Below are positions 16,448 through 43,842 of a stretch of DNA of 43,842 nucleotides, piece by piece (position 1 is the first letter of the stretch; each line of letters begins with the position of its first letter). The translations under genes and the position numbers were made by a program. The notes beneath the pieces were generated by a model that searched no databases, was not told the origin of the DNA, and was given only the letters and a program-made list of their open reading frames with translations. This DNA is from a virus (Duplodnaviria > Caudoviricetes): IMG/VR virus record IMGVR_UViG_3300020045_000732, positions 1 through 43,842 of that record. The stretch is one strand, 5' to 3'.

Positions 16448-16769
16448 TGAGACCACGCGTGTACCTTTGGCTACGTCTAAAGATGGCTGCTTTCTGTATG
16501 CTGACATTCATGTAATGGGTAAGATCTTCCTTCACTTTGGTTTCAATGAAGGCTTTAAGTTTACACCGTCTACATACAAAAGAATGATCCGAGACTTTGA
16601 CGAGGTATGTGCTTGGTTCAAATCCAAGGGAGTAAGGTACTTGTTTGCTGTTGTACCCGATGAAGAGCGTATACTTAAGTGGGAAGGTATGTTTGGTTTA
16701 GTACCGACACAAGCTATCCACGATAACAAAGGCAACATTAAGTTTGCAATAGTAAGGAAAGAATTGTAA
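16407..16769 (+). CDS. Hypothetical protein, possibly GNAT-fold (position of T7 gp13-like genes)
   Basis: Between nozzle and internal virion genes, ends 1 nt before the next ATG, has a W..MFGL motif. Start uncertain. Confidence 0.5.
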   Translation: MDGELSIQEIQKYNETTRVPLATSKDGCFLYADIHVMGKIFLHFGFNEGFKFTPSTYKRMIRDFDEVCAWFKSKGVRYLFAVVPDEERILKWEGMFGLVPTQAIHDNKGNIKFAIVRKEL

Positions 16770-25301: not shown

Positions 25302-25567
25302 TTTGAAACCTTCTTATAAGCTGTGGTGGTTACGGTTACTGGTACCACTTCTTCTAACTCGATATCATCGGAGTACTTCCAATCGTTGTCACAACTCTCA
25401 GTGGAGCCATCACCGCGGAACCATTGGTAGTATTTACCTTGATATAAGTATACAAAGCGTCTAGTTGTTCGCCAGCGAGACTGGTCTACAATCTCTTCAA
25501 GTATTTCTTTCACTTCAACGCCATCTGCTGTCTCGCCTTCGCATAGATCTTCTGCCTTAAGTATCAT
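25298..25567 (-). CDS. Hypothetical protein
   Basis: AAGGAG RBS, ATGA-coupled. Confidence 0.7.
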   Translation of the reverse strand: MILKAEDLCEGETADGVEVKEILEEIVDQSRWRTTRRFVYLYQGKYYQWFRGDGSTESCDNDWKYSDDIELEEVVPVTVTTTAYKKVSK

Positions 25568-28711: not shown

Positions 28712-28961
28712 GGGGCTTCCGTCCCCATTCAGTATTAAGTGTCTCTACTTGACGGAGTACTCTTGCTAACCTAGATGCTTGGTGGTAAGCAAGATCAGAG
28801 GCAACGGCAGGGAATCTCGTACGGTTAGTATTTGCTTTATGTAGAGTGTATCTTGTTGTACGTTTGAATTTAATTATGTAGTTGTAAGTGTTATGCGTTG
28901 TATCCGCTATTGTTTCTACATCCTTCTCAAGCGCAGGTAAATAATGACTAAGGGCGTACAT
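28701..28961 (-). CDS. Hypothetical protein
   Basis: ATG 28961 with GGAG RBS (the ORF track opens at 29060). Confidence 0.55.
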   Translation of the reverse strand: MYALSHYLPALEKDVETIADTTHNTYNYIIKFKRTTRYTLHKANTNRTRFPAVASDLAYHQASRLARVLRQVETLNTEWGRKPLDR

Positions 28962-29358
28962 CTTCAACTCTCCATTGTACTCTTGTTGCGTCAGACATGT
29001 TACTTGGTTTAGGTCCGCTTCCCCAAGGGTTGCCAAAGATACTTTTAAACAAGTAGTCACGACTCTCTCTAGTTATATTACCTTCGTAGTACAACTTTTC
29101 TATCTGACGTAGTTGGTATTCTTTTCCGTAGCTAGGTGGTTTGTAGTAGTCATGGCCCCATCTTTGGTATTGCTCACTTCTATTCCCGTAATCAATAGCT
29201 CTTGGATCAGAACGGGTCCAGTGGTCTACTACACTATAGCTTACTGTGTCTGTCGTTGACCTACGTACACCTACATGATATTGGGGAATGCTGAGACTTT
29301 CTTGTATCTCATTAATCATGTCGCGTGTTGTAACATGGGTCTCGTCAACAATCCTCAT
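28948..29358 (-). CDS. Hypothetical protein
   Basis: First ATG after the polymerase stop. The frame is open to 29535 inside pol, so the start is uncertain. Confidence 0.55.
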   Translation of the reverse strand: MRIVDETHVTTRDMINEIQESLSIPQYHVGVRRSTTDTVSYSVVDHWTRSDPRAIDYGNRSEQYQRWGHDYYKPPSYGKEYQLRQIEKLYYEGNITRESRDYLFKSIFGNPWGSGPKPSNMSDATRVQWRVEDVRP

Positions 29359-29383
29359 ATCAGCGGACAAGCCCCGTAACGTG

Positions 29384-31192
29384 TTAGTGGGTGTCGGCCC
29401 AGTTGTTACCGATCTTGTACTCACCATTGAGAGGGCATCTGAGCTTGAAGAACTCTCCTGCGTCGATGATGGATTGCACCTGGAGTTTGCCCAGTTCATG
29501 AGCTTGGTTACGTAAGACTTTGGATTGTGTTTCATCGTGGACCACCGTTAAAAGATTCCAGTCTATGTGCCTTGCCTTAGGTCTTAGCAAGTTCAATGAC
29601 TGTTTCATTACTATTGATTCATTGGATTGAAGGTAAAAGGCAAGGGCAAGGTGTTGACTTGGGATAGTGATACGTCTCCCATCGATAGCCACCATGTAAC
29701 CACGCCCAGCTGAGTCTGCGCAAAGTCTTTGAACTCTATCGAATCCGTCAATGCGTTTGAACAAGGTAGCTTTTGTTTCTCTTCCTTCACTTGAACCTAC
29801 TCCCAGCACTGAACCTAACTTAGCATCACCAGCACCAAGGATCATAGCGTAGATGTATGTCTTTGCCATATCCCTTGTGCACTCAGGTACTACCTCACGA
29901 AGGATGTCCCTGTTAACAGAGTGGACATCAGTACCGTTCTCCTTACGTCCCTCTGCAATAGCTTTAGCATAGTCAGGGTTACGCATAAGGTGAGCAAGTA
30001 CTCGTAACTGGATACCTTCGATATCACACCCGACCATACAGTAGTTAACCAGATCTTCTACTGTCCAGCAAGCCCTCATGTCAGCGCCCATCAAGCTACG
30101 GACTGCTGGTATGTTACCCATCTGGGGATCTCGGTGTGCCATGCGGTGTGTCGAGGTACCAATACCAATGATGTTACCGTGTACGCACTTAGTCACAGGA
30201 TTGTAGTGGTCTAACCAGTTACCTACTACCTTAGTCCTTGACCGGTACGTTAACCAATCACTAAGTTCCTTGGCAGCCTTAGACTCCTCAGGAATAGTAT
30301 TAAGATTCTCCTCGCATATCTTAGCTTGACCGCCCTTGGTCATGACATAAGGCTTCCAACCAGAGGTGCTTAGCCTGTCAATCAACTGCTTAGGACTTCC
30401 AAGGTTAAGAGGTTCAAGCATGTATAAGTTGTACGTGCCATCAGCATTACGCTCTGAGTAGTCTGCCTTAGCTATCTTAGCACTACTACGACTGAGCATC
30501 TCGCCTGTCTTCTTAGCAAACCCTGGGGTATACACCTCATAAAGCTTGTGCTTAGGTGGGAAGATGGTGTGGATACGCGCTTCGATATCGTTAGCACGGC
30601 TCAGGCAGGTGTCATAGATACCTTTAGCTTTGGGTAGATCAAGAAAGAAACCTGTGCGTCTGGCTTCACTGAGTGTGTACTGTGTACGGTACTCAAGATC
30701 AACGCTGAACCTGCTGAAGTCTTTGAGCTTAAGCATAAGATACTTGTACAACTTAAGGTTGACCCTACAGTCAAGCATCATGTACTCAAGCATTTCCAAG
30801 CTGAACTTACTGAAGTCCTCGAACTTACCTTTGTGTAGACCTAAGCGTATACCCCAAGCCTCAAGGCTGTGGCCACCAGTAAGCATAGGGTCCATGAGTC
30901 GGCAGAGGATGAGTGTGTCTTCGATTTCTTTAAGAGAGATACGTGCGTTACCAATTCTGTTAAGAGCGGGAGCATCGTACGCTATGTAGTTGTGACCAAT
31001 GAATGTCTTGACTTGCTTCCTAAACTCAAGGAACTTAGCCCACATGTCTACACCATAGAAGGTAAACTCCTCCTCGGTATCAATATCAATACACCCGATA
31101 CACCACACAACAGTAGGAGTTAAGCTGTCAGCCTCGATGTCACAGATCACCCGTCTGTGTGGTAACTCCTGCTTTGTTAAGATCGTATTCAA
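29384..31192 (-). CDS. DNA polymerase family A with 3'-5' exonuclease domain (T7-like)
   Basis: Exo I CDIEAD, Exo II GHNYIAYD, Exo III Y...D, motif A DIEGIQLR, motif B RDMAKTYIY, motif C VHDE. TTG start after AGGAGG. Confidence 0.95.
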   Translation of the reverse strand: MNTILTKQELPHRRVICDIEADSLTPTVVWCIGCIDIDTEEEFTFYGVDMWAKFLEFRKQVKTFIGHNYIAYDAPALNRIGNARISLKEIEDTLILCRLMDPMLTGGHSLEAWGIRLGLHKGKFEDFSKFSLEMLEYMMLDCRVNLKLYKYLMLKLKDFSRFSVDLEYRTQYTLSEARRTGFFLDLPKAKGIYDTCLSRANDIEARIHTIFPPKHKLYEVYTPGFAKKTGEMLSRSSAKIAKADYSERNADGTYNLYMLEPLNLGSPKQLIDRLSTSGWKPYVMTKGGQAKICEENLNTIPEESKAAKELSDWLTYRSRTKVVGNWLDHYNPVTKCVHGNIIGIGTSTHRMAHRDPQMGNIPAVRSLMGADMRACWTVEDLVNYCMVGCDIEGIQLRVLAHLMRNPDYAKAIAEGRKENGTDVHSVNRDILREVVPECTRDMAKTYIYAMILGAGDAKLGSVLGVGSSEGRETKATLFKRIDGFDRVQRLCADSAGRGYMVAIDGRRITIPSQHLALAFYLQSNESIVMKQSLNLLRPKARHIDWNLLTVVHDETQSKVLRNQAHELGKLQVQSIIDAGEFFKLRCPLNGEYKIGNNWADTH

Positions 31193-33620: not shown

Positions 33621-34322
33621 TTACGCTACCTTAGCAATCATCTTTGCTTGGTCACGAATCATTTCAATGCCACCTTCAATGTCCAGCTTAAGGGCAGGTG
33701 ACACTTCACTGGTGTCGAGGGCATCTTGGATAAGGTTGAGGGTAGTAAGGATGTTGTAAGCTACGCTATCCTTGAACACTACCTGATCACCAATGCGAGT
33801 AACGTTAGAGTAGATCGGTTTAACAGGCGCTGGCTTAGGGGTTACTACTGCCGGTGTCTGGGTTGTTGTTGGTGTCTGTGCTGCCACGATGGGTTGTTCC
33901 TTCTTAAGTTGTTGTTGGTATGATGAGTACTTCTTCCAATCGTATACCTTATCGTTAGGTAAGTCAATTGGAAAGACGGACTTGTTGTTGATAGTGATGG
34001 GATCTTTCAATACAAACATGGTAACACGTTTACCAAAGTTACTTAGCTTGACTGAAGACTTGATTGATACTGTTGGGTAAGCAAAGGCCTTCTCGATGTG
34101 TTCAAGCGCCTTGTCGCTTACCTTCCACAGTTCGCCCCGTACCTTACCCTGTCTGTGGATATAGGTAGTAGGCCATGCGCACGGTGTACCATAAGCAACA
34201 CCGAAGGCATAGTCCGCATCGGCTGTCTCGTACTCGCCATAGCATTTACCATCCGCTACTAACTTGTGAAGGGCAAACCCTTTCATAGTTGTACCGTATA
34301 CAAAAATAAAGTTACCTGACAT
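33621..34322 (-). CDS. Gamma-glutamylcyclotransferase (GGCT/AIG2)-like protein with C-terminal extension
   Basis: IFVYGT..G at the N-terminus, VRGELWKV. ATG 34322 after TAAGGA (the track start at 34481 lies inside the GATase gene). Confidence 0.75.
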   Translation of the reverse strand: MSGNFIFVYGTTMKGFALHKLVADGKCYGEYETADADYAFGVAYGTPCAWPTTYIHRQGKVRGELWKVSDKALEHIEKAFAYPTVSIKSSVKLSNFGKRVTMFVLKDPITINNKSVFPIDLPNDKVYDWKKYSSYQQQLKKEQPIVAAQTPTTTQTPAVVTPKPAPVKPIYSNVTRIGDQVVFKDSVAYNILTTLNLIQDALDTSEVSPALKLDIEGGIEMIRDQAKMIAKVA

Positions 34323-34335
34323 GTCTTCGTTTTCC

Positions 34336-35244
34336 TTATCCATAGTGTTGTTGCTCAAAGTATTGGTCGTAGTACTTGAGTCTTTCAATGGCTTCACAGA
34401 GGAGCTCATGGGTTTTCTCTGGGTTTTCCACCAAGACTTCAAGATCATCTTCGTTGAGGTGCAGCAGATCATCGAGTTCAAGATTCTCCTCCTTCTTGCA
34501 TATGTTCCTGACCATGTACAATTGTTCGACTGGTTCCCACGCTGGCTTAATAGAGGCCGTAGTGGCGGGTAATGTAGGCGTCGTAGTCTTCGTCGTCGAG
34601 CTTGTTACCGTTGATGGTGGTAAGCCCGTTTGCTTTCCCACGGACACATTTGCGCCACGGTACGTGTTAGTGTAGTGACCGAAGTAAGAGTTGTTTGATA
34701 CTGCACAACCATCACGAGTCTCCCACTTACCAGTACGGATGATGTTACCTTGGTCATCCATGAACAACAGCTTGTTGTTAGAACCTGTCAAGCCTTCAAG
34801 CATATCATGGAAGGCAAGTTCAAAGATAAGGTCGGGTGCCTTAGACAGTACAGGTTGCAGCCAGATCTCGTTGAACATGCGGGTGTCTGACTTAGTAGCG
34901 TGGTTAGGTGTGAAGTGGAAGACACCATTGTGCATGAACCACAGGTCACGACCATGATCCTTCTTGTTCAAGACTTGGAAGGGATGCGCGTTGGGTAGGG
35001 TAACGCCACCGTGGGTGGACATGCGGAGGTGGAATACAGCATGTACATCCTTTAACTTCTCCATCCATTCCCAAGTAGTAGCGCCTTCTTTCCATTTGTC
35101 GAACAGTTGGCGGTGTACCTTGAACTCACCTGTCGATGGGTCACGATACATAACACCAAGACCGTCTTCGTTACGGTTGGCTGCTGCAAGGATGTCCTCT
35201 TTAGCGAGGATAAGCCCTGCTGGTTTATCAATAATAACACACAT
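34336..35244 (-). CDS. Class II (Ntn) glutamine amidotransferase
   Basis: N-terminal Cys (MCVII), N.DG.G, HLRMSTHG, NAHPF, MHNG, SDT motifs. Confidence 0.9.
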   Translation of the reverse strand: MCVIIDKPAGLILAKEDILAAANRNEDGLGVMYRDPSTGEFKVHRQLFDKWKEGATTWEWMEKLKDVHAVFHLRMSTHGGVTLPNAHPFQVLNKKDHGRDLWFMHNGVFHFTPNHATKSDTRMFNEIWLQPVLSKAPDLIFELAFHDMLEGLTGSNNKLLFMDDQGNIIRTGKWETRDGCAVSNNSYFGHYTNTYRGANVSVGKQTGLPPSTVTSSTTKTTTPTLPATTASIKPAWEPVEQLYMVRNICKKEENLELDDLLHLNEDDLEVLVENPEKTHELLCEAIERLKYYDQYFEQQHYG

Positions 35245-35265
35245 AAGTATGTAGTCCTTTCTTTA

Positions 35266-37212
35266 TTAAGCTTGAGCGTTTGAGTGAGCACGGTAGGAGT
35301 TGAGTACCTTAGAGCGTGAAGCAACAGTGCTGCGTCGCGCCAGCAAGTACTTATCCTTGGCGATAGGTGCTGACTTGTGGTGGTACTGGTTGCCAAAACC
35401 TTTTGAACCATCGCATGAGTTGTCGATTTCCTCAGAGATACCTACTGCTCTAAGTTCTTCAGGAATAAACTGACGTTCTTTCAAGAAGTTAAAGAGGAAT
35501 GGGTATGCCTTACGGTTACCTGTCTTAGTATCCTTGAGCCAGTTAACAAAAGTCTTCCAGCTAAGGTCGGTGCAAGAAGCTACTGTGTGGCTGTAGGTAT
35601 GCAAGGCATGAAGGAACTCAAGGTTCTTCATAACAGATGGGTAGTGAAGAGTACCTTTAAAGATCCTGATCTCAACCGTGTGAGGTTTGCACAAGTTAAC
35701 AGCAGAGTACTTGTCTACTGAGCGACCTTCCTTGGTACGGAAGATGTCAGTGTGCTTACCATTCTTGATCACTGTCTCGTTGAATGGGGCGTACGATGAC
35801 GACTCGCGCTGAGCAATAGCAATCATGAACTTACGGTTATCAGGTAGGTTGATGAAGGTCATGAACTTACCAAGACCAACCGAAGTAAACGAGTCCTTCG
35901 ACATGTGTACGTGGATGCCTGTGGTACTGTTCTTGAATGAAGTAATCTCATGACGTACTTCACTGGTACGTAACAAAGATTCCCAAATACTATAGTGCTT
36001 AGCAAGGGTAGCTGGTACGCTGATGATCTCAAACCCTGAGTCAAGGGAGCCATCATCACATGTGATAGCAGTACGTTTCATCTCCTTCATAACCTTGAAG
36101 GCTGCACCGTTAGCATCGCCATCGTCACCGTTCTTCATCTCTACTTCAAGCTCAACACCCATGAACAAGGTGTTCTCGTAACCCTTCTTAGAACTGCGTA
36201 CCACTTCTTCGTAAGGTTCACTAAGGAATCCATCGAAGTAATCTAGTACGTTGTTAGACTTGTTAAGAATCTCGAAGTAATTTGAACTGACATAAGCACC
36301 AAAGTCTGGATCAAACTTGATACTTGGGTTCTCGTCAAGGTAACCCTGTGTTACAAAGCCTTGGTTCCACACATAGAACGGATGACGAGACTTGTCAAAG
36401 TTATAGTGGCGGCCAGTTGCTTCATCGTAGTACGTCTTCATAAGCACAGCCGATGGAGGGGCTACGTTCTGTGAAGAGATACGGTTACGTTGGTCGTACA
36501 CTGTGATCATATCCTTCATTGGATACAACCCAGCAACGATACCCTTACGGGATTCATAAGAACAGAGGGCAAGTCTTACTTGTACGTTGCCAACGTTCTG
36601 GTCATACGCCTCGAAGCTGACGTAAGCCTCGTCTGGATCGCCAACAATTTTATGGGCAAGTTGTACAGCGACTACCTTCTTTGTCAGTGAGCACTCGATA
36701 CCTTCACTCATGAAGTCTTTAGGTGGGGTAGGTACCAATTCCTTTTTAGCAATAGGGCAGTAGGTAGTAGGGAAGTACGAAGTGTATGATGGGATAAGTT
36801 TCTCGAGTCGGGCTGCTGCATCAAGGTTAGTAACGATCAAGCTACCAGCGGCGATACGAGCTTGGTACTGTTCCAAGTTCTCATTAGCCTTAGGTGTGAA
36901 CATGGATTGAACGGTGTTGTTAAGGTAGTTGATACCGCTGCGTCTTGCCAAGAGATCGAACACAACACTGCTACCAGTTGAGTGTGAAGAAGAGAACTTA
37001 CGCACCTGTGCATTGTACGCTTCTTGAATCTTATCAAGCTGTTGTTTGTCCACAGCACCGAACTTAGCTGCGTCACTGCGGCGGAGCATAGACTTAACGC
37101 GCTCTTTAGTAAGGGGTGTAAGGTAGTCAGCGTAATGTTTATCTGCCATTACTTTCCAAAGCAGGTGCAAGTCCTCAGACTTAGTGTCAATACCATATAC
37201 AATTTTTGGCAT
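35266..37212 (-). CDS. Putative amidoligase (COOH-NH2 ligase, Amidoligase_2-like) with long N-terminal extension
   Basis: GVELEVE, DGSL..GFEI.S.P, GIHVH.S, KYSAVN, TVEIRIF.GT motifs in the C-terminal half. Confidence 0.87.
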   Translation of the reverse strand: MPKIVYGIDTKSEDLHLLWKVMADKHYADYLTPLTKERVKSMLRRSDAAKFGAVDKQQLDKIQEAYNAQVRKFSSSHSTGSSVVFDLLARRSGINYLNNTVQSMFTPKANENLEQYQARIAAGSLIVTNLDAAARLEKLIPSYTSYFPTTYCPIAKKELVPTPPKDFMSEGIECSLTKKVVAVQLAHKIVGDPDEAYVSFEAYDQNVGNVQVRLALCSYESRKGIVAGLYPMKDMITVYDQRNRISSQNVAPPSAVLMKTYYDEATGRHYNFDKSRHPFYVWNQGFVTQGYLDENPSIKFDPDFGAYVSSNYFEILNKSNNVLDYFDGFLSEPYEEVVRSSKKGYENTLFMGVELEVEMKNGDDGDANGAAFKVMKEMKRTAITCDDGSLDSGFEIISVPATLAKHYSIWESLLRTSEVRHEITSFKNSTTGIHVHMSKDSFTSVGLGKFMTFINLPDNRKFMIAIAQRESSSYAPFNETVIKNGKHTDIFRTKEGRSVDKYSAVNLCKPHTVEIRIFKGTLHYPSVMKNLEFLHALHTYSHTVASCTDLSWKTFVNWLKDTKTGNRKAYPFLFNFLKERQFIPEELRAVGISEEIDNSCDGSKGFGNQYHHKSAPIAKDKYLLARRSTVASRSKVLNSYRAHSNAQA

Positions 37213-37248
37213 GGTAGGTGGTGTCCTTTCAATTGTTAGGAAGATGTA

Positions 37249-37270
37249 GGGGGAAGGTTTCCCCTCCCCC
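37249..37270 (-). other. GNRA-capped 9-bp hairpin upstream of the amidoligase gene
   Basis: GGGGGAGGG-GAAA-CCTTCCCCC on the - strand. No U-tract. Confidence 0.6.
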
Positions 37271-37277
37271 GTTCACC

Positions 37278-37739
37278 TTAGGCTACGCGGCCAGCGATAG
37301 CAGCGCCATCAAGAACAGTGTTCTTAACGACTGCGTTACCACCCAACGACGCGTTGTTTTTCAGCACAGAGTTGATGACCTGAGCAGTACCACCAACAGT
37401 TGAACCGATACCGATGCGGCTATCAGCGTCAACGAATGCAGTCAGGGCAACGATACCACCCTTGTCACCGCCAGCGTTGATGAAGTAACGAGCATCGACC
37501 GAACCTTTACCATCACGGAAGTCGTGCTTAATGACAGCGTTCAGGTTCTCGGTAGGCAGGATTGCCTTAACGTTGTAGGTCTTGTCAACAGTAGTACCGT
37601 CAACACGGCTGTACTCACGGTCACGGAACGTACCACCATCAGGCTTCGCAAAGAAAGTGCGAGCACCTACGCTAGTGATTGTTGCCTTTGAACCATTAGC
37701 CAATTCAACGCGCATACCTTTTTCGAGTTTGTTAAACAT
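37278..37739 (-). CDS. Hypothetical protein with C-terminal beta-helix-like repeats
   Basis: GGAG RBS. C-terminus has hexapeptide-like IGIGST-VGGTAQ-V..LKNNAS-LGGNAV-V repeats. Confidence 0.7.
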   Translation of the reverse strand: MFNKLEKGMRVELANGSKATITSVGARTFFAKPDGGTFRDREYSRVDGTTVDKTYNVKAILPTENLNAVIKHDFRDGKGSVDARYFINAGGDKGGIVALTAFVDADSRIGIGSTVGGTAQVINSVLKNNASLGGNAVVKNTVLDGAAIAGRVA

Positions 37740-37760
37740 GTGTAGTTATCTCCATATGAA

Positions 37761-37818
37761 AATGCCCGTACACCCAGTGCAGCCTTAAGTGTTATACTTA
37801 CTGGATATAGAAGGCGTT
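37761..37818 (-). other. Long intergenic hairpin, candidate RNase III processing site
   Basis: TATATCCAGT/ACTGGGTGTA 10-bp stem with G-U pairs valid on the - strand, outer GCC/GGC stem. Confidence 0.45.
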
Positions 37819-37825
37819 GTGTTTA

Positions 37826-38419
37826 TCAGGCTGCTTTAGTATTCTTTAGACCTTCAGTTACCCAGTCAGGCTCGTCGCCGTTGAATACCAGTAGGTCAGA
37901 TTCGTTCTCAACAAGGTACTTACGAAGAGCATTGCAGTACTCTTTCATTGTAAGACCTTCGCTTGATACACCGTAAGGATTTGGTGGAAAGATCTTGGTG
38001 TTCAAGTCCATCCAAGTACCCAGCTTGACACGGCGTTCTTCATTGAACAACCACTTGACATCATCGTATGTCAGACCACGCCAGTAGGTGTTAGCAAACC
38101 ACAGACGTGATGTGCGGTAGATCTCAAAGGCGTAGTGAATGAACCATGTGCGTACTTGTTCTTGGGTAGCGGCATCACCACTTACTACCCACTTGTACAA
38201 TTCAGACTGAAGCACGTCTTGGTTGTTTGCTACGTACTCACGAAGGAACTTGGTACGGTTAGAGGGGATAGCATCGGCACAGATAGTGCAAGCAATCATG
38301 GTGTACACCTCAAGGATGTCTTGCCATGAGTCGTGGACGATGGCGTTAGGTGTCATCTGTGCTGCCTTAACACCTTGTGAAGGGGCAAGCAGCAGAACTG
38401 TAGCAGGTTTGGTTGACAT
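37826..38419 (-). CDS. Hypothetical protein
   Basis: 197 aa, AAGGA RBS. Confidence 0.75.
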   Translation of the reverse strand: MSTKPATVLLLAPSQGVKAAQMTPNAIVHDSWQDILEVYTMIACTICADAIPSNRTKFLREYVANNQDVLQSELYKWVVSGDAATQEQVRTWFIHYAFEIYRTSRLWFANTYWRGLTYDDVKWLFNEERRVKLGTWMDLNTKIFPPNPYGVSSEGLTMKEYCNALRKYLVENESDLLVFNGDEPDWVTEGLKNTKAA

Positions 38420-38424
38420 GTAGG

Positions 38425-38640
38425 TTATCCTTTCTTTCTTAATTGATGGCTGGGTTGTTTGACGATGAGGCCTAGAGCTTTGAGCTCACCGTGTTTAAGT
38501 TTACGTTTCATAAGCAAGGCTACAAGTCGGGCTTCGCCCTGTGTACGCGCTCTGAATCGGAAGGTTACTTCGAACTCAGGTAGATTGTGGGCTGGGCGTT
38601 CAGCTTCAGTAGGTACGCCAACAGATTGATTGATAGCCAT
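38425..38640 (-). CDS. Hypothetical basic protein
   Basis: AAGGGA RBS, part of a tight gene chain. Confidence 0.65.
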   Translation of the reverse strand: MAINQSVGVPTEAERPAHNLPEFEVTFRFRARTQGEARLVALLMKRKLKHGELKALGLIVKQPSHQLRKKG

Positions 38641-38644
38641 ATCT

Positions 38645-38917
38645 TTATCCCTTTCTTTTCTTTAGAACAAACGAAGCTACGTTGCTGAGGTTAGCCAACT
38701 CTTCATCTATAGCAACGATGTCAAGAGGGTGGTCAGTTGTACTGAGTGGACGCCCTGTCTTAAGGAACATCAGCTTAGAGTCGTAGTATATCTCACGCTC
38801 TAGGCCAAGCCACTTGATAGCTACGCATCCACTGTTCACATGGTGTGTTACCCATTCGCATGTGTACTTAGTACCTGCCCTTGTGTAAGCGACAGTACCT
38901 TTTGTTATGTCGTACAT
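38645..38917 (-). CDS. Hypothetical protein
   Basis: AAGG RBS, part of a tight gene chain. Confidence 0.7.
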   Translation of the reverse strand: MYDITKGTVAYTRAGTKYTCEWVTHHVNSGCVAIKWLGLEREIYYDSKLMFLKTGRPLSTTDHPLDIVAIDEELANLSNVASFVLKKRKG

Positions 38918-38923
38918 GATGTG

Positions 38924-39145
38924 TTACCTTTGTATTGGTGAGTCAGTAGGCCAGCTGAAGTGCCTGTTTGTTAAGTAATAAACAGTGCCGTGGTTACCCC
39001 AGCCAAGAGGTTGGATATCTTTATGTGCATTATTGAACACAAATACTGCATCGCCACCAATGTAATGTTGTACAATACGGGTGTCAGTAGCAAAATCGCG
39101 TGCATCCTGAAAGGTAAGATTGCGGTCAGGTATTTTGTTTGTCAT
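38924..39145 (-). CDS. Array protein 10 (73 aa)
   Basis: ATGA-coupled. IPD...DFATDT...WPTDSPIQR. Confidence 0.75.
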   Translation of the reverse strand: MTNKIPDRNLTFQDARDFATDTRIVQHYIGGDAVFVFNNAHKDIQPLGWGNHGTVYYLTNRHFSWPTDSPIQR

Positions 39146-39378
39146 TTAGGAGTATCCTTTTCCCAAGGCTCTAACTCGTAACGTTTCTTTACATACCACA
39201 CACCAGGTCTAACACTATATCCAAGAGGTTTTACGTAAGGTGCTTGATTGAATAAGGTTTGAACGCACTCTTTGCCTGAGCCACGCATAAGGCGCTCGTG
39301 CAAATGTACTGTGTCTGTACTGTAGTCAGCTCTTACACCATCAAAGGTAAGGATGCAGTCAGGTATAGGGTTCTTCAT
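39142..39378 (-). CDS. Array protein 9 (78 aa)
   Basis: ATGA-coupled. IPD...DYSTDT...WEKDTPK. Confidence 0.75.
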   Translation of the reverse strand: MKNPIPDCILTFDGVRADYSTDTVHLHERLMRGSGKECVQTLFNQAPYVKPLGYSVRPGVWYVKKRYELEPWEKDTPK

Positions 39379-39635
39379 CTTGGCACCTCAGCGTTAAGCC
39401 ACGTTGGTCGAAGGAATTTACCACATACAATAGAAGTTCGGGGTCCAGCCATGAACTTAGCAAGTGGTGTGAATCCTTCAGGTATAACCTCACCACTTGA
39501 AACGTGCATGATACCTGGCCAGTCACGGTAGTATTTGACTGTGTGATCTAATTGTTTTTTAAACATGACGTATACATTAGGTGTAAGCATAGGCTTCAGC
39601 TTTTGCTGCAATGCGGTTGTGTTATACTGAGTCAT
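39375..39635 (-). CDS. Array protein 8 (86 aa)
   Basis: ATGA-coupled start 39635. Weak N-motif (PMLTPN), C-terminus WLNAEVPR. Confidence 0.7.
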   Translation of the reverse strand: MTQYNTTALQQKLKPMLTPNVYVMFKKQLDHTVKYYRDWPGIMHVSSGEVIPEGFTPLAKFMAGPRTSIVCGKFLRPTWLNAEVPR

Positions 39636-39868
39636 CTTGGTACGCATCCTTCATGCCATAGGTGGTGTACTAAACGGTTATCTTTAAAGGTATACACCCA
39701 ACAACCGTTGGACAATTGGCCTCTGCCTGTTAAACCTAGATTGCCCCCTTCAATAGACTGCCAAGGACCGGCCCATGAGGCAGCTAGTAAGGTGTCAGTC
39801 ATAAGGTCTTCGTAGTTAGGAAGTTTAACAAACAACCACAAGGGGCGTTTTATTCCATAGCGATTCAT
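39632..39868 (-). CDS. Array protein 7 (78 aa)
   Basis: ATGA-coupled start 39868 with GGAGG. LPN..DLMTDT...WHEGCVPR. Confidence 0.75.
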   Translation of the reverse strand: MNRYGIKRPLWLFVKLPNYEDLMTDTLLAASWAGPWQSIEGGNLGLTGRGQLSNGCWVYTFKDNRLVHHLWHEGCVPR

Positions 39869-40023
39869 TGCGGTACCTCCCGCCATTTGGAAAGAGCCCT
39901 TGGGTAAAGAGCGTATGCTCCACCCTCGATAAGGTACTTACATGGCGCTAAGCCAACAGCAAAGAAACAAGTATCGGTAGCGTAGTCTTGTGTGTTAGGT
40001 AAAACTATTAATCTTTCGGACAT
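39865..40023 (-). CDS. Array protein 6 (52 aa)
   Basis: Not in the ORF track. MSERLIVLPNTQDYATDTCFF...KWREVPQ fills the gap exactly. Confidence 0.7.
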   Translation of the reverse strand: MSERLIVLPNTQDYATDTCFFAVGLAPCKYLIEGGAYALYPRALSKWREVPQ

Positions 40024-40027
40024 CTTG

Positions 40028-40216
40028 TTACCTTTGTACTTCCTCTTCTAACCAAGGGTACAACCTTTCTAGTTTGTAGTAGTAGTCTCCATAGAATATA
40101 ACTGGTTGTTCTCTTGTCCGTACGTACCTTGTAGGAAATTGACACCACAGGCCTTGGTCAGTGTCAAGGTCTTCGATCAGTGCATCATCAGGTATGTGTG
40201 TTATAAGGTGTGTCAT
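40028..40216 (-). CDS. Array protein 5 (62 aa)
   Basis: ATGA-coupled start 40216. IPD...DLDTDQ...WLEEEVQR. Confidence 0.72.
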   Translation of the reverse strand: MTHLITHIPDDALIEDLDTDQGLWCQFPTRYVRTREQPVIFYGDYYYKLERLYPWLEEEVQR

Positions 40217-40413
40217 CTTGGTAACATGTCCCTTTCCCATAGGTTTCCCCATGATTTAGTACACCAGACATGCGTACTGCCCCAACTATCTATACGTACA
40301 TCACCAAGTGATGGTCTGTGTTGGAATACAGAGTTCGTTTTCTTACGAGAACTTAAGTACGTGTTGTCAGGTACCATATCTTCCATCTCGTGTACAGTCA
40401 AAGGTTTAGTCAT
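40213..40413 (-). CDS. Array protein 4 (66 aa)
   Basis: ATGA-coupled start 40413. DMVPDN...WERDMLPR. Confidence 0.72.
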   Translation of the reverse strand: MTKPLTVHEMEDMVPDNTYLSSRKKTNSVFQHRPSLGDVRIDSWGSTHVWCTKSWGNLWERDMLPR

Positions 40414-40604
40414 TGCGGAATGTCCCATGGAAACCACCTCGTTCCTACTCTGTACACTAGACAGTACACTCTATGTTCTTCACTTGCCATGAAGGAATGA
40501 GGCGCTCGTTGAATGATCTTTACACCTGCTTTTTTAGCAGAGTACTGCCACCTAGTAACAACAGTACAAGTATCGGTTGCCCAGTCATTGTGGTTGGTTG
40601 TCAT
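40410..40604 (-). CDS. Array protein 3 (64 aa)
   Basis: ATGA-coupled start 40604. DWATDT...WFPWDIPQ. Confidence 0.72.
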   Translation of the reverse strand: MTTNHNDWATDTCTVVTRWQYSAKKAGVKIIQRAPHSFMASEEHRVYCLVYRVGTRWFPWDIPQ

Positions 40605-40813
40605 GGCACAGTCTTTCCCCATACACGGTCTCTGAGTGGAGTGACACAACGTACCCACCCCCTACCGTAGAAGTCTGTATGATACACACCGCCTACTTGT
40701 TTGTGGTAAGGAGTCCTGCTGTCATATGCGAGTCTTGAACCGATAACAGAGGAGTCAGGCAGCATGTCAGCTATTTGTGCTCTTGTTAGCGAGGTAGTAT
40801 CCACTGGTTCCAT
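40601..40813 (-). CDS. Array protein 2 (70 aa)
   Basis: AAGGA RBS, ATG 40813. DMLPDS...WGKTVP. Confidence 0.72.
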   Translation of the reverse strand: MEPVDTTSLTRAQIADMLPDSSVIGSRLAYDSRTPYHKQVGGVYHTDFYGRGWVRCVTPLRDRVWGKTVP

Positions 40814-41070
40814 AGCCAATCCTTTCTTCTAACAAACAGGTAATACTTTTTGGTAGGAGCGAAACCCAAGGTATGAAGTAACGTGTACTTACCCCACTCA
40901 TACGGCATAGAACTATGGGCTATCTCCCAAGTGTCAGGCATACGGTTAGAGTAGTATGCAATAGCTTTAAGGTAGTCAGAACCATGGAACTTGAACTGAA
41001 ACCTAGCCCAGTAAGCGAAGCGAAGCCTTGAATAGATAAGCTTTAGTCTTCTTCGTACCACCATGAGCAT
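40786..41070 (-). CDS. Array protein 1 (94 aa)
   Basis: AAGGGG RBS. NRMPDT...WNQWILPR. Confidence 0.68.
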   Translation of the reverse strand: MLMVVRRRLKLIYSRLRFAYWARFQFKFHGSDYLKAIAYYSNRMPDTWEIAHSSMPYEWGKYTLLHTLGFAPTKKYYLFVRRKDWLWNQWILPR

Positions 41071-41246
41071 GGCAAGACCCCTTCAAGGAAGGTTACGACA
41101 CAGGCTGCAAGGAACATGAGTACGCCTACTGGCCAAGCTAGACCAAACAATAAACCATACTCATAAGGACTGTTATGAGGAAAGAACTTAGACCACAACA
41201 GATAGCACAGTAAACCAGCTAGTAAGTACATGATAACTAAAGACAT
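41043..41246 (-). CDS. Small membrane protein (2 transmembrane helices)
   Basis: AAGGA RBS, two hydrophobic segments, WP motif. Confidence 0.7.
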   Translation of the reverse strand: MSLVIMYLLAGLLCYLLWSKFFPHNSPYEYGLLFGLAWPVGVLMFLAACVVTFLEGVLPCSWWYEED

Positions 41247-41279
41247 ATTATTATCCTTCTTAATGAGTGTTGATTTTAC

Positions 41280-41308
41280 TTGACAGACTTTTAAAGTACC
41301 TGTAGAAT
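41280..41308 (+). promoter_or_regulatory. sigma70-type promoter antisense to the early genes
   Basis: TTGACA (41280-41285), 17 nt, TAGAAT (41303-41308). Confidence 0.65.
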
Positions 41309-41310
41309 AG

Positions 41311-41390
41311 ACTTATAAGGATTACTTAAAAAGAATAATCTAATAAAGATTAACTTAATAAATATACTTACTTATAAGTAACTTATAAGG
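41311..41390. repeat. Degenerate copy of the AT-rich CTTATAAG module at 235-326
   Basis: CTTATAAG at 41312, 41371 and 41382. Colinear similarity with 235-326. Confidence 0.8.
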
Positions 41391-41648
41391 TTAACTCTTG
41401 ATTGTTATCGTGTTACCACACGTACACTGGATAGTATTGTAGCTATACAATGGTGTGTTGGCTTTCTTGTAGTCTTGATAGTGGTAGTTATCAGTAAGCA
41501 ATACCATCATGAGGTCTCTCATACCATTGCCACCCTGTTTAAACTTAGACCATTGCAGTATGTCTTGGGGTCTGATGTCTAGCTTGAACGCCTTGCGTAC
41601 CAAGATAATCTCAACTGAGTAGTCTTCGTATGTCATTACTTGTGGCAT
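41391..41648 (-). CDS. Hypothetical protein
   Basis: AAGGGG RBS, starts 1 nt after the upstream stop. Confidence 0.65.
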   Translation of the reverse strand: MPQVMTYEDYSVEIILVRKAFKLDIRPQDILQWSKFKQGGNGMRDLMMVLLTDNYHYQDYKKANTPLYSYNTIQCTCGNTITIKS

Positions 41649-41649
41649 G

Positions 41650-41775
41650 TTACTTCCCCTTCACCATCATCCATACTACGAATGCAGCCATGCCAAGGAA
41701 GACGGCAAGGACTACAAGTAGATAAGTTTCCCATCCGTACTGGGTCAATACCCACGGAACATTTGATACTAGCAT
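41650..41775 (-). CDS. 41 aa single-pass membrane peptide
   Basis: GGAGG RBS. MLVSNVPWVLTQYGWETYLLVVLAVFLGMAAFVVWMMVKGK. Not in the ORF track. Confidence 0.65.
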   Translation of the reverse strand: MLVSNVPWVLTQYGWETYLLVVLAVFLGMAAFVVWMMVKGK

Positions 41776-41899
41776 ATTAAGTTACCTCCATAAAGTGTGA
41801 ATGAATTTGGGTATGGGTTAACCTATCACCATACATAGGACGCGCTTCGATAAAGGGGAGCGTATAGCCTTACGTGTATTAGGTAAACGAAGCGTATCT

Positions 41900-42463
41900 T
41901 TACGCGACTAGTGCCTTGAGTTTATCCAGCTTGGATTGATCCAGCTTGTCACCCTTAGCTTCGGACGCGCCCTTCTTAAGGCGCGCATCAGCAAGACGAA
42001 TGACGTTCTTAATCATGGCGTCAAGGTCAAGGGGTTTATAGACAGGCTCGTTGCTTGCCTTATACCAAGGTGTTTCAAGCATCTCTCCTAGCTTAAGACT
42101 CTTGGTGTTATCGTACACGGCAAGCCCTTCCTCAAGGTCTTTGTACTTGGGAGTGAGCAAGTCACCCGCTGTAAGGAAACGTACTTGTCCAAAGCGTTCA
42201 AGGTACGCCTTCATTGCATTGATACGCAATCCCGCTGGCATACCGTCAAGCATACGTCTTGTCACTAGAATGTCCTTATGCAGGTACAAGTGACACAAGA
42301 TAGACGATGCAATCAAGTGATACTTTTCTTGTGTAGTCATAGCATGGCTTTGCGCTTCCAGAATAGCAGCGTCAATCTGCTTGCTTGTAACGAGTAACTT
42401 TGTTTCCTTAACAAACTTGTTAACTTGTTGTTCTTCCTTGGTTAGTTTAGTCTTAGTTGTCAT
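41900..42463 (-). CDS. Early hypothetical protein (187 aa)
   Basis: AAGGA RBS, helical. Resembles uncharacterised proteins near the early ends of podovirus genomes (from memory, unverified). Confidence 0.8.
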   Translation of the reverse strand: MTTKTKLTKEEQQVNKFVKETKLLVTSKQIDAAILEAQSHAMTTQEKYHLIASSILCHLYLHKDILVTRRMLDGMPAGLRINAMKAYLERFGQVRFLTAGDLLTPKYKDLEEGLAVYDNTKSLKLGEMLETPWYKASNEPVYKPLDLDAMIKNVIRLADARLKKGASEAKGDKLDQSKLDKLKALVA

Positions 42464-42811
42464 GGTTGATTGTCCTTCTATTATGGTTAGTTACGTCGGT
42501 ACAAGCCCGTAAAGGGCGCATAGACCGCGTAAACCGTCCGTCAATGGTGTGTCTATCGTACTTAACATAACCACACTCCATAAGGGTGAATCCTGTATCG
42601 CAGGGGTCAGCTTATCCAGCTTCATTCTGCATACGTTGGACACACTCGCATTATGGCGCGATTATGGGTATTGATAAACAGCTTCACCTATTCGAGTAGC
42701 CACACATAGTGACCTTATTAGGGCGTTAACGCCTCACTCTTTCGATGCCATGCCGGACAGCTTGCGCCGTCTATGTCGCCCTTAACAGGCGCTTTAACTA
42801 TAGCGGGTTAG

Positions 42812-42976
42812 TCACATGCCGTGTTTGGCTTTCGCCCCCCGTGACATGTTAGACCAGTCCTTTACCTTGCCGTGTAGTCTTGCGAAAGGGAAACTAGATT
42901 GAACAGTTACACCCTCAACTTGCGGAGCATAACGGCGCGCCTTGCGCTTTGCGTTCTTTGAAAGTTTAACTTGCAT
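42812..42976 (-). CDS. 54 aa Arg/Lys-rich peptide, first gene of the early arm
   Basis: GGAGG RBS. MQVKLSKNAKRKARRYAPQVEG...GAKAKHGM. Not in the ORF track. Confidence 0.65.
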   Translation of the reverse strand: MQVKLSKNAKRKARRYAPQVEGVTVQSSFPFARLHGKVKDWSNMSRGAKAKHGM

Positions 42977-43322
42977 CGTATGCCCTCCACTCGTTGCCCC
43001 GTTGCGTCATTGCTCCGGTAAAACCATATGACCCGATAACTCGGTAAACTTCAAACGAAAAGAGCATTCACCCCCTAACATAACAATATTATTACCTAAT
43101 CACCCCGTTAAACTATCTAGTTATTACACGGTTATGATAAAGAAAACCCTTAAAGTAATAAATGGAAAGAACGAATCGATTCGATTGTAACAATATTACC
43201 TTCCCTTATATAGATATATTGAGTAGGTATTCCTTAACCGTTAGGTGTAAATAAAAGTGTTCGCTCTATTGACATTCGCTTTAATCTATGGCAGCCAGTT
43301 AGTTTACATAATAAGATGTAAG

Positions 43323-43351
43323 AGGGTAGACCAAAACAATCGTAATGTCAA
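43323..43351 (-). promoter_or_regulatory. Candidate early sigma70 promoter
   Basis: TTGACA (43351-43346), 17 nt, TACCCT. The -10 is imperfect. Confidence 0.4.
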
Positions 43352-43553
43352 GCTAACAATTTCCTTTACATCCTTCTTATAACGTGCTAGTCACCTTCCT
43401 TATTATGTCAACAGTCCGCCTAACATACTTATAAACCCTTTGCAAGCCAATTCTATATGTCATAAGTACGAGTCAATGTGTTATCGCAATTCCTTTTCTA
43501 GAACAGATAGTGAACAAGTCCCTTAACTTGATAGATTGTTACAAGACTAGGGA

Positions 43554-43581
43554 AGGATAGCGTAATAAACTAACAAGTCAA
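43554..43581 (-). promoter_or_regulatory. Candidate early sigma70 promoter
   Basis: TTGACT (43581-43576), 16 nt, TATCCT. Confidence 0.35.
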
Positions 43582-43721
43582 GCCCCTTTAATAATTATTT
43601 AATAGTCATAACAAGATGATAACCTTCTTATATAGGGTGTATGGGAGTGAAGTGAGAATGATACGCATTATCAACTACTTATGGTAACCCCTTGATATGT
43701 CTAATGATTATGGAACCTATT

Positions 43722-43842
43722 ACCTTCTCATCTTGTAAAGTTTACGATTTGAGAAGCCTTGCGACGATTTGAGAAGGACTTTGAAGGTGTACGCCTTGAC
43801 TTTATAAGGTACTTGCTTCTTGAGGGGTGGGGTAAGGGGGTG
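43722..43842. repeat. Direct terminal repeat, right copy (121 bp)
   Basis: Identical to 1-121. Confidence 0.95.

Follow-up and report, generated by a model that had tools for sequence, protein, structure and literature searches.

Ten adjoining small genes on the minus strand of a podophage genome are best read, at a probability of roughly 0.45, as a lineage-specific tandem expansion that likely forms an early host-interaction panel, with one predicted target per copy. The host-interaction role is drawn from two grounds, genome position and analogy, on which an anti-defense or host-takeover function is plausible. The ten genes would be copies of one small, probably β-rich domain that arose by tandem duplication and diverged long ago, likely co-produced early in infection as a single translationally coupled block. 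Each copy is predicted to have its own host target, a protein of defense or housekeeping, recognized through a variable surface.

The window, which is the whole stretch of 43,842 nucleotides analyzed here, carries a 121-nt terminal repeat at both ends and thus represents a complete genome. The phage is a complete Zobellviridae-like podophage. Its terminase is 57–62% identical to those of Zobellviridae (cobaviruses SIO1, P12053L and ICBM1; MEP401), its terminase and replication genes are closest to that family, and it shares with Zobellviridae two divergent gene blocks, a family A polymerase, a fused primase-helicase and a similar size. Unlike in Zobellviridae as sampled, the array is present: a search of 50 genomes or records of relatives (49 reached via the terminase; 15 near-complete virus records) gave no match to its profile. 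The terminase search also lists contigs of about 42–46 kb at 69–73% identity, among them P0014, P0026, P0027 and P0090. The array is known from one uncultured genome. The array and its surroundings comprise the following features.

43722..43842, unstranded: terminal repeat of 121 nt, identical to bases 1-121.
41900..42463, minus strand: phrog_1448 gene, a marker of the region that also occurs in the two nearest relatives.
41247..41390, unstranded: intergenic stretch upstream of the array, 22% G+C, with three CTTATAAG palindromes.
41280-41308, plus strand: sigma-70-like site (11/12) within this intergenic stretch, pointing away from the array.
41043..41246, minus strand: hydrophobic 67-aa ORF directly upstream of the array, a non-member.
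40786..41070, minus strand: g1, 94 aa with a basic N-terminal extension; NRMPDT at 42, tail WILPR; the weakest member.
40601..40813, minus strand: g2, 70 aa; LT-x5-DMLPDS, tail WGKTVP; paralog of g4.
40410..40604, minus strand: g3, 64 aa; DWATDT, tail WDIPQ; paralog of g6.
40213..40413, minus strand: g4, 66 aa; LT-x5-DMVPDN, tail WERDMLPR.
40028..40216, minus strand: g5, 62 aa, acidic; IPD...DLDTDQ, tail WLEEEVQR.
39865..40023, minus strand: g6, 52 aa, the shortest; LPN...DYATDT, tail WREVPQ.
39632..39868, minus strand: g7, 78 aa; LPN...DLMTDT, tail WHEGCVPR; paralog of g6.
39375..39635, minus strand: g8, 86 aa, a weak member; PMLTPN, tail WLNAEVPR.
39142..39378, minus strand: g9, 78 aa; IPD, LT, DYSTDT, tail WEKDTPK; paralog of g10.
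38924..39145, minus strand: g10, 73 aa; IPD, LT-x5-DFATDT, tail WPTDSPIQR.
37826..38917, minus strand: three ORFs downstream of the array (90, 71 and 197 aa), context.
35266-37212, minus strand: amidoligase-2, context; the enzyme block is 33621..37212.
34336-35244, minus strand: class II glutamine amidotransferase, context.
About 33621-34343, minus strand: gamma-glutamyl cyclotransferase, context.

The initial annotation described ten consecutive minus-strand ORFs of 52–94 aa, mostly coupled by ATGA, and both points hold. The ORFs adjoin one another across 41070-38924, and ATGA overlaps occur at 7/9 internal junctions; of the other two, g1/g2 is a 28-nt overlap and g5/g6 a 4-nt gap, and intergenic distances range from −28 to +4 nt. 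Under a codon model of the genome, the annotated frame scores best of six for all ten ORFs, with scores (−0.03 to 0.19) below those of most genes of the same genome. The array occupies 4.9% of the compact 44-kb genome and has the terminal repeat on one side and the replication genes on the other, in what is presumed to be the early region of the phage. Promoter and terminator counts are at chance level, and Rfam gives no match within 37000-43842. The three downstream ORFs at 37826..38917 contain no family hit and neither of the two motifs described below, and the 90-aa ORF among them does not match the array profile.

The first motif, D-hydrophobic-x-[TP]-D, had been noticed near the N-terminus and is specific to the array. 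Its regular expression matches 8/10 members, compared to a maximum of 2/10 across 20,000 shuffles of the members, 0/48 remaining genes of the genome and 0/539 control small ORFs from 25 control loci; a six-frame scan of the whole genome yields eight matches, all in array members. A motif-blind block search of the tail-less proteins scores 573, compared to 308±27 for shuffles (maximum 363, n=40) and 274±33 for random control-ORF sets (maximum 352, n=40), which places the array far above both the shuffled and the unrelated small-ORF backgrounds that had been proposed as a check. At width 10, this search also puts all ten members in register, including the weaker versions NRMPDT and PMLTPN. The IPD or LPN reported before the motif is found in five members, and an LT-x5/6-D element is common to g2, g4, g9 and g10. 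An aromatic strand, said to be present in most members, occurs in 8/10 by a regular expression formulated post hoc in the follow-up analysis (shuffle mean 2.8, P=0.0006).

The second motif, a W...[VILT][PQ] ending, matches 10/10 members, at most 3/10 over 20,000 shuffles, 0/48 other genes of the genome, 1/539 control ORFs and 0/73 control ORFs that end in ATGA. A Trp lies 4–9 residues before the C-terminus in all ten members, compared to 9.6% of controls. Most of the remaining tail residues are encoded where the next gene has its Shine-Dalgarno-like site, spacer and ATGA. In six members the ATGA overlap itself supplies the codon, NNA, for the terminal R/Q/K, and in g5 and g10 the final Arg codon, AGG, falls within the Shine-Dalgarno-like site of the gene that follows; the W-I-L-P-R of g1 has the only terminal residue free of a junction signal. 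Because the tail doubles as ribosome-binding site and ATGA for its neighbor, only the Trp is clearly a protein-level feature. The suggestion that the tail is more than a junction artifact therefore survives for the Trp, while the terminal R/Q/K is mostly junction-dependent. The junctions are also alike as DNA: exact words of at least 8 nt are shared in 6/45 pairs of array junction windows versus 6/300 for other genes, these repeats being 8–13 nt long, and CC immediately precedes the start in 8/10 array genes versus 6/42 others.

The middles of the proteins had been thought impossible to align, but several pairs do align, at 32–43% identity. With tails removed, z is 12 for g9/g10 (25/71 aligned positions identical), 8.8 for g2/g4 (19/60), 8.3 for g6/g7 (22/51), 6.3 for g3/g6 and 5.5 for g6/g10. 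DNA-level traces persist in g9/g10 (48 nt, 73% identity) and g3/g6 (21 nt, 86% identity). In leave-one-out profile rankings, 7/10 members reach the top 10 of 540 when held out, the weakly attached ones being g1 (93), g5 (25) and g8 (19 of 540); when g2 and g4 are both left out, they drop to 101 and 115 of 540. These adjacent, co-oriented genes are thus mutually homologous, as expected of tandem paralogs, with g1, g5 and g8 only weakly attached. The distance from motif 1 to the last Trp is 41–48 residues in 7/10 members. This near-constant spacing, together with bodies that align in pairs, favors one small shared and diverged domain over the constant docking ends and variable specificity region first envisaged.

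In such a domain, motif 1 would form the turn that leads to the first strand, with the C-terminal Trp packing on the fold, so that both motifs would be structural and not docking tags. Predicted structures of g10 and g4 are of low confidence (pLDDT 53–55), and the g10 model has strands at residues 22–29 and 32–39, directly after motif 1. Foldseek and VIA searches with these low-confidence models were uninformative (best Z 2.9 and 2.5). An SH3/Tudor-like small barrel is a candidate fold for the array proteins; ESM Atlas matches to clusters with p29 and PcrA-Tudor fell under the reporting threshold, and the g9 and g2 queries gave nothing above it. The members contain no transmembrane stretch (maximum 19-residue hydropathy 1.06).

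The same motifs could instead belong to a library of adaptors, in which motif 1, the W..VP tail or both dock one common partner from phage or host and the variable middle recruits different targets. Motif 1 does persist across members whose bodies do not align, g1 retains W-I-L-P-R without an overlapping start signal, and Trp, Tyr and Pro are abundant in the proteins (Trp 4.1% versus 1.3%). However, the near-constant spacing and pairwise-aligning bodies look like a folded domain and most tail residues serve the junction, which makes an adaptor library doubtful; if true, it would represent a new strategy for phages. Somewhat less credence goes to a ten-member library built on a new mini-domain whose D-x-x-[TP]-D loop and C-terminal Trp might make up a single conserved face docking one machine, while its hypervariable strands catch different host defense proteins and its junctions recombine cassettes. 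The machine could be of phage or host, and junction recombination would add and swap cassettes.

Branches in the member tree are very long and codon scores weak, and the array is missing from the nearest complete relative, as might be expected if a gene accordion had amplified copies for dosage and left most of them drifting, with one or few functional. Yet none of the ten frames is interrupted and their coupling is tight, at 20–43% protein identity and with DNA similarity mostly lost. Drift over such distances is expected to break frames, so the open frames count against a remnant of this kind, as does the share of a compact genome that the array fills, and we consider it unlikely.

Sequence kinship is supported within {g3, g5, g6, g7, g9, g10} and within {g1, g2, g4, g8}, two subgroups interleaved along the array; the claim of a single paralogous family thus holds inside each, and the link between them comes from the motifs. 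An hhalign comparison of the subgroups gives P=0.25, with an alignment that does not extend past motif 1. If the array combined two or more small-gene families without kinship, their likeness being limited to the junction sequence and a common turn motif, this would explain the failure to align, the DNA-level CC before the starts, and the upstream non-member ORF, which reads a tail-like FLEGVLP, minus the Trp, over the g1 start. Against such unrelated families, motif 1 is internal, away from the junction and written in varied synonymous codons, it is confined to the array among the 48 other genes and 539 control ORFs, and the LT-x5-D element crosses both subgroups. This explanation is therefore rather improbable.

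Outside the genome, no convincing homolog was found. In PHROGs, Pfam, NCBIfam and PADLOC, all array members stay below every cut-off, and a PDB sequence search gave no match. A ten-member profile, whose weak sensitivity is evident from its own members scoring only 40–94 bits, drew 94 candidates from 5.8 billion proteins and returned only the window's own proteins; against 1.84 billion representatives it returned seven own proteins and one insect repeat protein, which was rejected. A g9/g10 profile gave two candidates, again only the window's own proteins. Searches with tblastn of g10, g4, g7 and g3 (4/10 members) against 50,697 phage records revealed no homolog, all matches having E≥2 and lying in other frames or unrelated genes, and blastn of the array region found nothing. 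A DNA pattern combining junction and motif had 43 matches in IMG/VR, close to the number estimated for chance, and none of them is an array; g9/g10 patterns gave 0/95 candidates, and neighboring genes as queries found no close relative. Of 14 candidates in GTDB, the one that passed is a chance match of 9 residues at the end of a bacterial contig. A metagenome scan by terminase pattern gave five contigs, all too short upstream to include the array locus, and the nearest relative's contig likewise stops before it. No paper on the family was found in the literature searched, which covers few subscription journals. A resemblance to DUF551 (PF04448) was considered, but at E≤1 this profile matched nothing in the genome, with control profiles giving matches, and it is assigned to no member. 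Mimicry of an SSB tail was rejected because array tails end in R/Q/K/P and not Phe.

Could the motifs be address tags that send unrelated cargo into the capsid for injection? Available parts of PMC12373910 describe T4 Ip1-3 as sharing only a leader, occupying a variable locus and inhibiting different defenses, a comparable arrangement of fixed tag and changing cargo. The array proteins have no common leader at the N-terminus (residues 2–10 agree at a mean of 1.0 position over 45 pairs), motif 1 starts anywhere from residue 7 to 42, bodies are homologous in pairs, and either motif occurs in 0/48 other genes, virion genes included, so address tags are very unlikely. The pair of amidoligase and amidotransferase is reported for MEP401, MEP402 and over 30 related genomes (PMC10580990, as far as its accessible text goes). 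That the members are substrates or precursor peptides of the downstream amidoligase, amidotransferase or cyclotransferase, as proposed initially and in keeping with their shared strand and the array's place 1.7 kb upstream, is scarcely credible, since four unrelated ORFs separate array and ligase, members are without a shared leader or acidic terminus, and three control phages that carry an amidoligase by annotation or match (MEP401, MW202733.1 and MW202697.1) contain no motif-1 ORF, lending the proposed co-occurrence no support.

We return to tandem expansion of one domain. The rest of the tail may be retained because, in each copy, it supplies the following gene with a ribosome-binding site and start, and a whole-gene duplicate could thus insert already coupled. 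Short junction identities could seed more duplication and loss. Small lytic podophages rarely keep paralogs, and ten copies in 44 kb are unusual; ten diverged copies on 4.9% of the genome hence suggest that selection for diversity has been sustained. Should each copy block a distinct defense or takeover target, the array would offer ten cloneable genes on one scaffold as a panel, a source of new anti-defense activities and a view of how specificity evolves.

Several known systems resemble the array in part. T4 amplifies a counter-defense gene through 6–10 bp microhomologies, according to the accessible portion of bioRxiv 10.1101/2022.04.14.488369. The T4 IPI/IPII/IPIII loci also consist of small genes with a short shared motif (available parts of PMC12373910, PMC9958956 and PMC13716836). 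They are described there as a non-essential, variable locus, and since each of Ip1-3 blocks one GmrSD variant (PMC12373910), one defense target per gene provides the model of function. However, T4 Ips share only an N-terminal capsid-targeting leader of about 10 aa (PMC9958956, in the text available), while the array motif is internal and a leader is absent; the accessible text of PMC12373910 gives no homology beyond the leader, whereas array bodies align in pairs. T4 Ips are also loaded into the head, cut by the prohead protease and injected. Hyperplastic regions of T4-type phages resemble the array as runs of ORFan early genes that can be shuffled at short repeats, but they use PeSL promoter/terminator (stem-loop) cassettes (both from available parts of PMC2839356), where the array has none and instead has ATGA overlaps and 8–13 nt words. 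The lpl cluster of Staphylococcus aureus likewise contains tandem paralogs in which a gene end and the next start can co-evolve; in lpl a central stretch of DNA, long and highly conserved, serves recombination (both per the accessible text of PMC2568036), unlike in the array, where DNA identity is mostly gone. Overall, the array is most like phage lineage-specific tandem paralog expansions, with adjacent same-strand small genes, a short motif, extreme divergence and a place in the early region, and its own feature is a pair of motifs that bracket the domain, in a 44-kb podophage.

All ten small ORFs proposed by the initial annotation (g1 to g10, from first to last) are present. They encode 52–94 amino acids, and a codon model of the genome prefers each to the other five frames, with modest scores (−0.03 to 0.19). 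ATGA overlaps join the genes at seven of the nine internal junctions. The region is organized as follows:

41900–42463, minus strand: phrog_1448 gene, near the terminal repeat
41043–41246: hydrophobic 67-residue ORF, unrelated to the array, overlapping g1 by 28 nt
38924–41070, minus strand: the array, g1 to g10
38645–38917: 90-residue ORF
37278–37739: 153-residue ORF, with a weak Phage_ProQ_C_like match (E 0.03) and a hexapeptide-like C-terminus
33621–37212, minus strand: amidoligase-2, class II amidotransferase and cyclotransferase block, followed by the primase
35266–37212, within that block: amidoligase, matched only at residues 335–582; its ~330 N-terminal residues have no family or phage match

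Phages often carry a family of small beta-barrels, and two members of it may be seen here: the 90-residue ORF and, in its N-terminal half, the 153-residue ORF.

The N-proximal motif D-hydrophobic-x-[TP]-D-[TSNQ] (motif 1) occurs in eight of the ten members, compared with at most 2/10 over 20,000 shuffles, 0/48 other genes of the genome and 0/539 small control ORFs from 25 loci in other phages. A six-frame scan of the genome finds eight matches, all in array members. Because the regular expression is post hoc, a motif-blind ungapped block search was run on proteins without their tails. As a comparison with shuffles and unrelated small ORFs it places the motif far above both (573 versus 308 ± 27 in 40 shuffles and 274 ± 33 in 40 random sets of ten control ORFs), and at width 10 it aligns all ten members, including g1 and g8.

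The middles of these proteins had been described as unalignable. This is not so for all of them: in local alignments with tails removed, 40 of the 45 pairs score z ≤ 3.1, and the remaining five are g9/g10 (z 12), g2/g4 (8.8), g6/g7 (8.3), g3/g6 (6.3) and g6/g10 (5.5). Global identities are 25/71 for g9/g10, 19/60 for g2/g4 and 22/51 for g6/g7. A tree separates g1, g2, g4 and g8 from the other six (support 87/88; no branch starred, four very long tips), and the two subgroups are interleaved along the chromosome, an order that implies duplication in several rounds. In seven of the ten leave-one-out profiles the held-out member ranks in the top 10 of 540; the exceptions are g8 (19), g5 (25) and g1 (93), and g2 and g4 drop to 101 and 115 when both are withheld. 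When g2/g4 and the other six are compared profile to profile, the motif alone aligns (P = 0.25). Judged from sequence, the proposed paralogy is thus firm within the subgroups, while between them it is motif-based; an LT-x5/6-D element, found ahead of the motif in members of both (g2 and g4, g9 and g10), is a putative bridge. The ten are very probably one paralogous family.

The common C-terminal tail, W-x(1–5)-[VILT]-[PQ], is found in all ten members, in 0/48 other genes and in 1/539 control ORFs. Every tail contains a Shine-Dalgarno-like site (scored with a generic anti-Shine-Dalgarno sequence), a spacer and the next gene's start. In seven members the NNA codon of ATGA encodes the final residue; in g5 and g10 the closing arginine codon, AGG, belongs to the Shine-Dalgarno-like site of the gene that follows. 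The tail is largely dual-use DNA. It is not a generic by-product, because the corresponding pseudo-frame ahead of 42 other starts yields one partial and no full match, and 0/73 ATGA-ending control ORFs carry it. It is an array-specific junction: exact common words of 8–13 nt are found in 6/45 array junction pairs versus 6/300 elsewhere. The 67-residue ORF reads FLEGVLP over the g1 start, an array-like tail without the tryptophan. This C-terminal tryptophan (10/10 members versus 9.6% of controls) often lies outside the pairing site, and is the part of the tail best explained at the protein level. The ILPR of g1 lies within the overlap with g2 rather than at a start, and is the sole case that favours selection on the entire tail as protein. 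This agrees with the earlier view that the tail is not only a start-signal artefact.

AlphaFold models were built from six-row and two-row alignments (pLDDT 53 and 55). Each has three predicted strands, and fold searches with these low-confidence models found nothing. The distance from motif 1 to the last tryptophan is 41–48 in seven members and 28, 33 and 58 in the others. Hydrophobic residues follow motif 1. SH3/KOW-type barrels have an entry turn, hydrophobic-x-P-G-D-x-V, which the motif may resemble. No transmembrane stretch is found in any member. Net charge ranges from −6 to +12, so uniform DNA mimics are ruled out.

The window is a complete phage genome, because bases 1–121 recur exactly at its end and the record is classed as complete with direct terminal repeats. 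Structural genes occupy the plus strand; those for replication and accessory functions lie on the minus strand and are read from the right end. The terminase is 57–62% identical to those of SIO1, P12053L, ICBM1 and MEP401, and the replication genes include a fused primase-helicase and a polymerase of family A. A scan of 43 proteins gave no match to an RNA polymerase family. The phage is read as Zobellviridae-like. A 195-residue ORF (28948–29535) shares ~150 nt with the polymerase 3′ end and has a near-zero codon score; its real start is probably further in. The palindrome CTTATAAG occurs nine times in the genome (0.94 expected from base composition): five copies just inside the left terminal repeat (236–427), one at 25313, and three at 41312–41389, upstream of the array in a gap of 22% G+C. 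None was found in the relative loci checked. The palindromes may be sites where a regulator, or proteins of packaging or replication, bind. The region's top sigma-70-like site (41280–41308, plus strand, 11/12) faces away from the array, antisense into upstream early genes.

Profile searches for homologues returned the window's own proteins only, though the ten-member profile gives its own members just 40–94 bits, and would be liable to miss homologues below about half identity. By terminase, the closest relative (L046, 77%) has the same layout, and its contig ends just past the phrog_1448 gene. The nearest complete relative compared (G030, 70%) has no array, no amidoligase match and a shorter, different accessory region. 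None of 50 related genomes or records, among them 15 near-complete virus records, matched the six-member profile. An unannotated 72-residue ORF just before the primase in MW202697.1 (40–258, plus strand), single and without the tail, has NHNDW-x-x-DT as in g3, an aromatic strand and RHF-x-W as in g10. It is the top control in seven of ten leave-one-out runs (E 0.0005–0.24 among 540; hhalign P = 5e-4, probability 30%). Picked as the best of 539, its apparent kinship is borderline; if real, it would point to an ancestor that stood alone and had no V-P-R tail. No further relatives of it were found. Small paralogue runs exist in relatives too: one control genome (G033, ~16130–16760, plus strand) has a row of three genes of another family (z up to 9.9), which have in common the pattern Y-x-E-G-Y ... 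W-x-R-G and are perhaps akin to ribosome-modulation-factor-like phage proteins.

On the simplest account, whole genes for a small domain were duplicated in tandem inside a coupled operon. Each copy carries at its end the signal starting the next, so a duplicate would be translated at once and junction DNA would stay alike. In T4, amplification is seeded by identities of 6–10 bp (bioRxiv 10.1101/2022.04.14.488369), the size of the short ones at the array junctions. Ten frames have stayed open in a compact genome despite such divergence, and this suggests different jobs for the copies. The position of the array, inferred to be early, and analogy with T4 Ip1–3, each of which is reported to block one GmrSD variant (PMC12373910), favour one predicted host target per copy. 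Given a paralogous family, this function has about an even chance; the combined reading is tentative, with a probability of roughly 0.45. Adaptors that all dock on one shared partner are an unlikely alternative to these separate targets. The suggestion that members are amidoligase substrates is weak: the enzyme pair is described as common in MEP401-like phages (PMC10580990), and three amidoligase carriers in the control set have no motif-1 ORF.

A literature search found no description of this family. T4 internal proteins are reported to have a common leader (PMC9958956) that array members lack, and the array was rejected as a T4 ip locus on this ground; PeSL regions (PMC2839356) and DUF551 were also rejected. 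The Staphylococcus aureus lpl cluster offers a precedent for junction-spanning units of the kind that the array may have (PMC2568036). The array is a real, undescribed sequence family in a known kind of arrangement, with a predicted function, and is notable for its size within a small podophage.
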